Shown piece by piece: positions 23,977-24,052 of a stretch of DNA of 64,000 nt. Below the pieces are notes generated by a model. That model had not been told where the DNA came from, did not search any database, and worked only from the letters and a program-made list of their open reading frames with translations. The DNA is taken from the NCBI GenBank assembly GCA_030324005.1, contig JARDVH010000163.1, forward strand, positions 60,616,284 through 60,680,283. The letters are read 5' to 3'. Origin of the DNA: Negaprion brevirostris. Its lineage: Eukaryota. Position numbers and translations under genes: made by a program. Position 1 is the first letter of the stretch. Every line of letters begins with the position of its first letter.

Positions 23977-24052
23977 AAAACCGGACGATGAAGACATCGC
24001 TATTGAGGATGAAGCAGATCTTTCACCATTGGAAGCAGAGGATGATGAATGA
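23977..24052 (+). CDS. SAG: Arrestin copy A terminal coding exon (KPDDEDIAIEDEADLSPLEAEDDE*)
   Basis: cttcag acceptor; acidic C-tail alignable to DDDIVFEDFAR; TGA at 24050-24052; AATAAA downstream. Confidence 0.8.

Follow-up and report, generated by a model that had tools for sequence, protein, structure and literature searches.

Loss of the C-tail polar-core arginine in the Arr-S1 arrestin of cartilaginous fishes: a candidate weakly latched rod arrestin

Introduction

The defining property of rod arrestin is its strict selectivity for phosphorylated rhodopsin. In Negaprion brevirostris, a 64,000-nucleotide stretch of genomic DNA (hereafter the window) contains an arrestin gene, designated copy A, whose last coding exon places an Asp residue at the position of the C-tail Arg of the polar core (bovine R382). 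The question raised by this locus is whether such an arrestin is still locked in its basal state. The original prediction, made from the letters of the window, described a charge reversal at this site and proposed that the protein may bind unphosphorylated opsin like p44 or serve a different photopigment.

According to Indrischek et al. 2017 (PMC5501109), the residues of the polar core are conserved across vertebrate arrestins, and in bovine arrestin-1 R382 bonds with R29, D30, D303, and L173 (PMC4625158). The premise that engineered disruption of this latch weakens phosphorylation dependence is well founded, as bovine arrestin-1(1–378) exhibits greatly raised binding to unphosphorylated light-activated rhodopsin, Rh* (PMC10219436); its binding to phosphorylated forms is raised too (PMC4923902). 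For wild-type arrestin-1, the ratio of Rh* to P-Rh* binding is quoted as 5–10% (PMC10219436). Elimination of the R382 charge raises binding to P-Rh*, with R175–D296 reported as the critical pair (PMC8621391), and the beta-arrestin-1 mutant R393Q is weak relative to 3A, with most molecules remaining inactive (PMC12157425). A study based on a double mutant (PMC4964525) does not enter the evidence considered here. In the splice form p44, R29 points into the core and can take the place of R382 (PMC4625158). In vivo, engineered phosphorylation-independent arrestin-1 partially rescues mouse rods that lack rhodopsin phosphorylation and is lethal at high level (PMC11173308).

Results

Copy A is the Arr-S1 gene

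A scan for splice signals yielded an arrestin exon at 119–254, and a protein search with this exon returned cartilaginous-fish arrestins, with AUG68929.1 the top match at 100% identity. This record (P0001 in our set), an eye transcript product named 'arrestin-S1', was then aligned to the window together with 80 kb of upstream and 60 kb of downstream sequence. Exon search and protein alignment identify copy A as the cartilaginous-fish Arr-S1 gene (S1), with 15 coding exons and 383 residues, 382 of which are identical to AUG68929.1 (the sole mismatch is F269L). Every intron is GT–AG, internal stops are absent, and nine of the coding exons lie inside the window with the other six upstream (Table 1). 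The original view that the nine window exons are open and show no decay is therefore upheld, and a pseudogene is ruled out by the open frame and the very high expression described below.

The window contains two arrestin genes arranged tail to tail, copy A on the plus strand and copy B on the minus strand. Pfam profile searches of the same genome did not list these genes, whose exons are short, but the protein search did recover them; the two-domain arrestin fold itself (PF00339 and PF02752) is present on AUG68929.1. In a tree of the core domains from which the tail was left out (36 of 127 proteins), S1 and S2 form one chondrichthyan clade with support of 100/98, and an S1 clade that includes chimaera is supported at 100/99. 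This topology is in accord with Lamb et al. 2018 (PMC5795056), whose Arr-S1 is the same gene, with the same tail, in tandem with Arr-S2.

Table 1. Positions in the window of the S1 (copy A) and S2 (copy B) features discussed in the text.
Feature	Position	Strand	Remark
Arr-S1 coding exon 7 of 15 (R171, R175, K176 equivalents)	119..254	+	exons 1–6 up to 19.3 kb upstream of window
Arr-S1 coding exon 8	1608..1692	+	
Arr-S1 coding exon 9	5633..5705	+	
Arr-S1 coding exon 10, lariat loop (D296, K300, D303 equivalents intact)	8291..8428	+	
Arr-S1 coding exon 11	12802..12879	+	unjoined X2 contig ends at each border
Arr-S1 coding exon 12, 24 nt	14991..15014	+	
Arr-S1 coding exon 13	16626..16672	+	
Arr-S1 10-nt microexon, sets frame of last exon	20016..20025	+	inside the 16672/23977 joint of run X2
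Arr-S1 last coding exon, remodelled acidic C-tail	23977..24052	+	AG acceptor just before
Arr-S1 strand-XX anchor I-A-I-E-D (bovine 375–379), retained	23996..24010	+	
Arr-S1 E-A-D replacing F380-A381-R382; candidate 14-codon deletion site	24011..24019	+	
Arr-S1 Ser-Pro, +9 from the 375 position	24023..24028	+	
Copy B (Arr-S2), tail to tail with copy A	33286..60958	-	continues past window end
Copy B last coding exon, keeps F380 and R382 (CGA at 33366–33364)	33286..33406	-	internal control

The copy A tail lacks F380 and R382

The last exon of copy A encodes (K)KPDDEDIAIEDEADLSPLEAEDDE-stop. Using rat arrestin-1 as a bridge to bovine numbering, residues I366, A367, I368, E369, D370, E371, A372, and D373 occupy bovine positions 375–382, such that the F380 equivalent is Glu (24011–24013) and the R382 equivalent is Asp (24017–24019). 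The remaining polar-core residues, R170, D291, D298, and D27 (bovine R175, D296, D303, and D30), are intact, as the original prediction had stated for those it could see. Of the five polar-core charges (D30, R175, D296, D303, and R382), four are consequently present in copy A, and the fifth aligns with Asp. With respect to the three-element anchor, the I-A-I triplet is kept, F380 is lost, and the positions of L103 and L111 carry Ala and Ile, respectively; an AlphaFold2 model still builds the strand. Ile at position 377 had also been counted among the losses. This is not the case, as Ile is normal at this site in cone arrestins, and the notion of F377-to-Ile as a defect was rejected; the real losses are therefore F380 and R382.

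The acidic tail is the product of the main transcript

Given the short exon that precedes the tail, one alternative is that the true C terminus of S1 is encoded by a different exon or in a different frame. In 6 of 25 S1 database records the last exon is indeed read in a shifted frame, as expected if the 10-nt exon were skipped, which is a point for this alternative and also a caution for users of the databases. A second such point is that run X1, in which the 16672/23977 joint is found at a depth of 8.6, does not display the microexon content. A contig of run X2, in contrast, joins 16672 to 23977 through exactly the 10 microexon letters at a depth of 24,897 (both runs are presumed to be RNA and may not be independent of the published transcript). 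The 20025/23977 junction, put forward in the original prediction as a check of the gene model, is thus found both in the published eye transcript and in a public contig. Moreover, eye-transcript proteins of two sharks and one ray (P0001, P0020, and P0004) all end in the acidic tail, and the shifted frame would itself lack an F-x-R motif. A tblastn search of the window with five canonical tails gave no other plus-strand exon with an F-x-R tail (the N gap is not readable), and a canonical alternative last exon for copy A was rejected on this result and the X2 junction. The artefact explanation is already refuted for the main isoform, and it is overall extremely improbable. Absence of the canonical C-tail through alternative splicing, as in p44, likewise does not hold for S1, as the tail is in the main transcript.

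The microexon controls the frame of the copy A last exon. In the six models of other species, the shifted-frame tail is longer and basic, and in the N. brevirostris genome this frame is open for ~50 residues; such a tail reflects either faulty annotation or a minor isoform resembling p44.

The loss is shared by sharks, rays, and chimaeras

To place copy A among its orthologs, 25 S1 records were considered, of which 13 have in-frame tails (12 species, including chimaera); the six in a shifted frame and six that are truncated or end otherwise were set aside. The alignment across sharks, rays, and chimaeras that the original prediction had suggested gives a uniform answer: the F380 and R382 equivalents are absent in all 13 in-frame tails, and none contains Lys or Arg from position 372 on, in agreement with the earlier remark on the lack of basic residues in the copy A tail. 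Glu378 and the hydrophobic-x-hydrophobic triplet are kept in all 13, and each tail contains 10–13 acidic residues in 21–24. The residue at position 382 is mostly Asp, with Glu, Gly, or His in others, and it is therefore the absence of Arg, and not the presence of Asp, that is constant. Among non-chondrichthyan records the Arg is kept in 82 of 94 (of the 12 exceptions, 11 are truncated or end in an alternative way, and one carries His), and tails without Lys or Arg number 0 of 83 (tails of at least 15 residues) versus 13 of 13 for in-frame S1. Rather than a peculiarity of one copy or species, the loss characterizes the dominant retinal arrestin of chondrichthyans as a whole, and the chimaera split is dated to 413–473 million years ago (PMC5501109).

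Within the same genome, the polar-core Arg is kept by S2, by the cone arrestin, and by one beta-arrestin (of the two beta-arrestin loci, the one read through to its end). Copy B matches Arr-S2 (P0027), with several differences. In other species the S2 Arg is replaced by Gln or His in three of seven records, on separate branches and with F380 kept, and loss of the Arg alone is therefore tolerated. In some species, both rod-type arrestins consequently lack it. The tail of the cone arrestin in the N. brevirostris genome (L033:3466–3564) reads I-V-I-K-E-F-N-R, with Lys replacing the conserved Glu378. Two short contigs (G000:C55264 and C12611) also contain arrestin exons and may belong to a fragmented second beta-arrestin.

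These results bear on the ghost shark, for which no exon 16 homolog of SAG.2 was found and its loss was suggested (PMC5501109). We equate SAG.2 with S1, since SAG.1 has R171N like the chimaera S2 record. The chimaera record P0024 has an S1-type tail, and the last exon in the window lies in the place expected for exon 16; this exon thus appears to be present yet remodelled, which would correct the suggested loss.

S1 is the most abundant retinal arrestin transcript

S1 is not a minor copy but the most abundant arrestin transcript of the shark and ray retina. In reef shark retina, RPKM-CDS values are 4998 for S1 and 232 for S2, and further pairs are 2269 versus 1104, 4156 versus 852, 2436 versus 461, and 688 versus 175 (PMC5795056). 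In nine more sharks, S1 is found at 3,622–15,228 TPM and S2 at 131–1,239 TPM, with S1 exceeding S2 in nine of nine (PMC11886822). Both studies suggest that S1 is the rod form.

The possibility that the partner of S1 is not rod rhodopsin but another pigment, such as a pineal or cone opsin, draws on its finger loop, which is unlike that of other arrestins (R66H in 14 of 15, L77 to Q or H, and T78 to A or P), and on the fact that no cell-level localization of S1 was found in the literature searched. The high retinal TPM values speak against it, as do one of the nine sharks, in which S1 is abundant and cone opsin and cone arrestin were undetected, and the S1–RH1 expression correlation, which is positive and not significant at P = 0.063 (PMC11886822). 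This option of the original prediction is not supported, and we regard it as very unlikely.

Substitution or deletion as the origin of the tail

The original prediction aligned the tail without gaps and read the change as Arg to Asp. While Asp does fall at the R382 position, a gapped alignment with 14 codons removed fits the rod arrestins of ray-finned fishes better, and in evolutionary terms the 'charge reversal' may be a deletion. Specifically, nine of the 12 S1 species have a Ser-Pro motif at +9 from position 375, one has it at +8, and two, one of them chimaera, lack it. The motif is found at +23 in gar, in two S2 records, and in four cyprinid SAGa. When the eight S1 residues after 379 were slid along six ray-finned SAG tails, the score was –1.41 ungapped and +1.91 at an offset of 14 residues, a value reached by 0 of 200 shuffles, although the groups were chosen after the match had been seen, the tails come from predicted gene models, and the gain is by our estimate about that of a standard gap penalty. 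For teleost SAGb, the score peaks at an offset of 11 and is reached by 10 of 200 shuffles. All shuffles were beaten in one of eight reference groups, and the six groups other than ray-finned SAG and teleost SAGb did not beat theirs. With S2 as the reference, 242 of 300 shuffles scored at least as high, and with all 84 references 60 of 60 did so, neither result being significant. On balance, we lean toward a 14-codon deletion over a point reversal of charge as the way in which Asp came to the R382 position. By alignment, either origin would leave an acidic or neutral residue after strand XX in place of the Arg.

The conserved Ser-Pro of S1 could also be a proline-directed kinase site. Beta-arrestin-1 has a Ser-Pro at +26, which we take to be such a site.

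Phosphate-binding residues and the strand-XX anchor motif are retained

The phosphate-binding residues K14, K15, R18, R29, K110, and K300 are all found in copy A. Across S1, all 14 aligned N termini have K14 and K15, all 15 proteins have R18, K110, K166, K176, and K300, and 12 of the 15 have R171. An opsin on the same contig, presumably rod-type, has 11 Ser/Thr among its last 20 residues. Expression of both kinases, GRK1A and GRK7, is reported for every shark studied (PMC5795056, PMC11886822).

In AlphaFold2 models, strand XX is built in S1 at residues 366–370 (block pLDDT of 63) and also in S2, from an input alignment that contained canonical tails. The residue at which confidence drops under 50 is 372 in S1 and the Arg itself in S2, and the models neither separate S1 from S2 nor distinguish a basal from an active state. 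A Foldseek search with the model gave TM-scores of 0.80–0.87 to solved arrestins in the best 50 rows, with basal and active structures mixed among the best matches.

The conserved anchor and acidic tail, the retained phosphate sensors, the phosphorylatable opsin, and the two kinases could all be accommodated by a compensated latch, in which the acidic tail would serve as a built-in phosphopeptide mimic in the N-domain groove and R29 would fill the R382 site, giving S1 the same selectivity as mammalian arrestin-1. The weak effect of R393Q and the orientation of R29 in p44 are in keeping with this arrangement, as is the death of mouse rods that express pre-activated arrestin-1-3A at high levels (PMC11173308). 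Nonetheless, p44 is pre-active despite the position of its R29, F380 is lost besides R382, and the acidic partners of the Arg drift instead of co-adapting (see below). Full compensation is hence a possible but clearly less probable reading than partial pre-activation.

Partners of the missing Arg drift in S1

Forty-six sites are invariant in 102 non-S1 records, and eight of these are altered in one or more of 20 S1 species, including three partners of R382 (R29, D30, and D303). Three of the other five varying sites, as well as the states of P0006 at 29 and 30, resemble gene-model or alignment errors, and the changes that stand after inspection are R29K, D30N, D303 to G, V, or E, R66H, and G337S. 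D303 is altered in three separate S1 lineages, to G (two stingray-group records, taken as one event), V, and E, and R175 and D296 are invariant across S1. The enrichment of R382 partners gives Fisher p values of 0.0007, 0.002, and about 0.004 (the last by hand) with 2, 4, or 5 of 43 background sites taken as varying, in a post hoc test on predicted proteins in which L173, not being invariant, is uncounted. Disuse of the R382 arm of the polar core would be expected to produce this pattern. The helix-I partners of the anchor are also smaller in S1, with Ile or Val for L111 in 15 of 15 proteins and Ala for L103 in 5 of 15, including copy A.

Discussion

The reading that we favor, with a probability of roughly 0.55, is that S1 is a weakly latched, partly pre-activated rod arrestin that would still sense phosphate. 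Judged from its residues, S1 likely binds light-activated rhodopsin with less need of phosphorylation than mammalian rod arrestin. We propose that a rod-arrestin gene was duplicated in stem cartilaginous fishes and that S1 subsequently lost the segment from F380 onward, probably when a deletion of 14 codons brought the acidic, Ser-Pro-containing distal tail next to strand XX. The tail would still dock through I-A-I-E and acidic contacts with the basic N-domain groove, with the polar core no longer plugged, and release would then be achieved by fewer phosphates or by active rhodopsin alone. Shut-off with S1 would thus need less kinase action than in mammals, and phosphorylation would still raise affinity.

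Partial pre-activation is favored because S1 is intermediate between the 1–378, R382 charge-elimination, and R393Q cases. Bovine 1–378 and p44 both lack F380 and R382, as does S1, and 1–378 also keeps the 375–378 anchor. Those two proteins, however, are an engineered truncation and a minor splice form without the distal tail, whereas S1 is a main gene product with an acidic one. A strongly acidic tail of at least 18 residues from position 375 onward is retained in S1, unlike in the 1–378 truncation, which counts against pre-activation. Like S1, beta-arrestin-1 R393Q loses the C-tail polar-core Arg (PMC12157425), but it is a single neutral substitution of weak effect, whereas S1 loses F380 too and is acidic at the Arg site in most species. 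A natural precedent for tail loss is found in the teleost cone arrestins ARR3a/b (PMC5501109), although these are cone-type and lost the whole last exon, while S1 is rod-type and has kept the exon and the strand-XX anchor.

A more extreme reading is that S1 is a fully phosphorylation-independent, genomically encoded equivalent of p44, with its tail released at rest and any active rhodopsin quenched. That S1 lacks the same residues as the 1–378 truncation, that its Asp adjoins D30 and D303, and that D303 is now G or V in some lineages are all compatible with this idea. The anchor, however, has been conserved since the chimaera split and R175–D296 is invariant, the phosphate sensors, opsin Ser/Thr tail, and both kinases are kept, and quenching without delay would presumably reduce the sensitivity of rods. 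We consider true equivalence to p44 improbable, the lowest in rank of these three readings. The original wording 'like p44' probably overstates the case, given the conserved strand-XX anchor, the weak effect of R393Q, and the intact phosphorylation machinery. The related proposal that a constitutively pre-activated arrestin, able to bind active rhodopsin that is unphosphorylated, has been the main means of rhodopsin shut-off in shark, ray, and chimaera rods for more than 400 million years, as a natural counterpart of the engineered 'enhanced' arrestins tolerated at high expression, is doubtful, if less so than strict equivalence to p44. A tie to the cone-like adaptation of skate rods was left as speculation, because S1 is common to all cartilaginous fishes.

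The S1 gene, its duplication, and its expression are already published. The loss of F380 and R382 is unremarked in the motif section of PMC5795056, a paper whose alignment figure or table presumably displays the tail, and the open literature searched contains no remark on the S1 tail, although subscription papers and unread supplements could hold one. Sharks go unmentioned in the accessible part of a 2024 arrestin review (PMC11173308). The loss is significant as it means that a whole vertebrate class has a main retinal arrestin without F380 and one of the five polar-core charges. The outcome would be one of two, either a lower phosphorylation threshold for rod shut-off or a second natural way of locking the basal state, and S1 would stand as a naturally tolerated design beside engineered phosphorylation-independent arrestin-1.

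Several further features of the pair deserve mention. In S2 (copy B, 49073–49219, minus strand), R171 is missing from all eight records and R18 from six of the eight. It is thus S2 that has lost phosphate-binding residues yet kept F380, and the parts of the switch that are degraded in S1 and in S2 complement each other. Neither S1 nor S2 has F85 and F197, the residues of self-association, and R291, a reported suppressor of Rh* binding, is His in both. Finally, it is upstream exon 4 of S1 that carries His at the otherwise invariant R66 and the changed finger loop.
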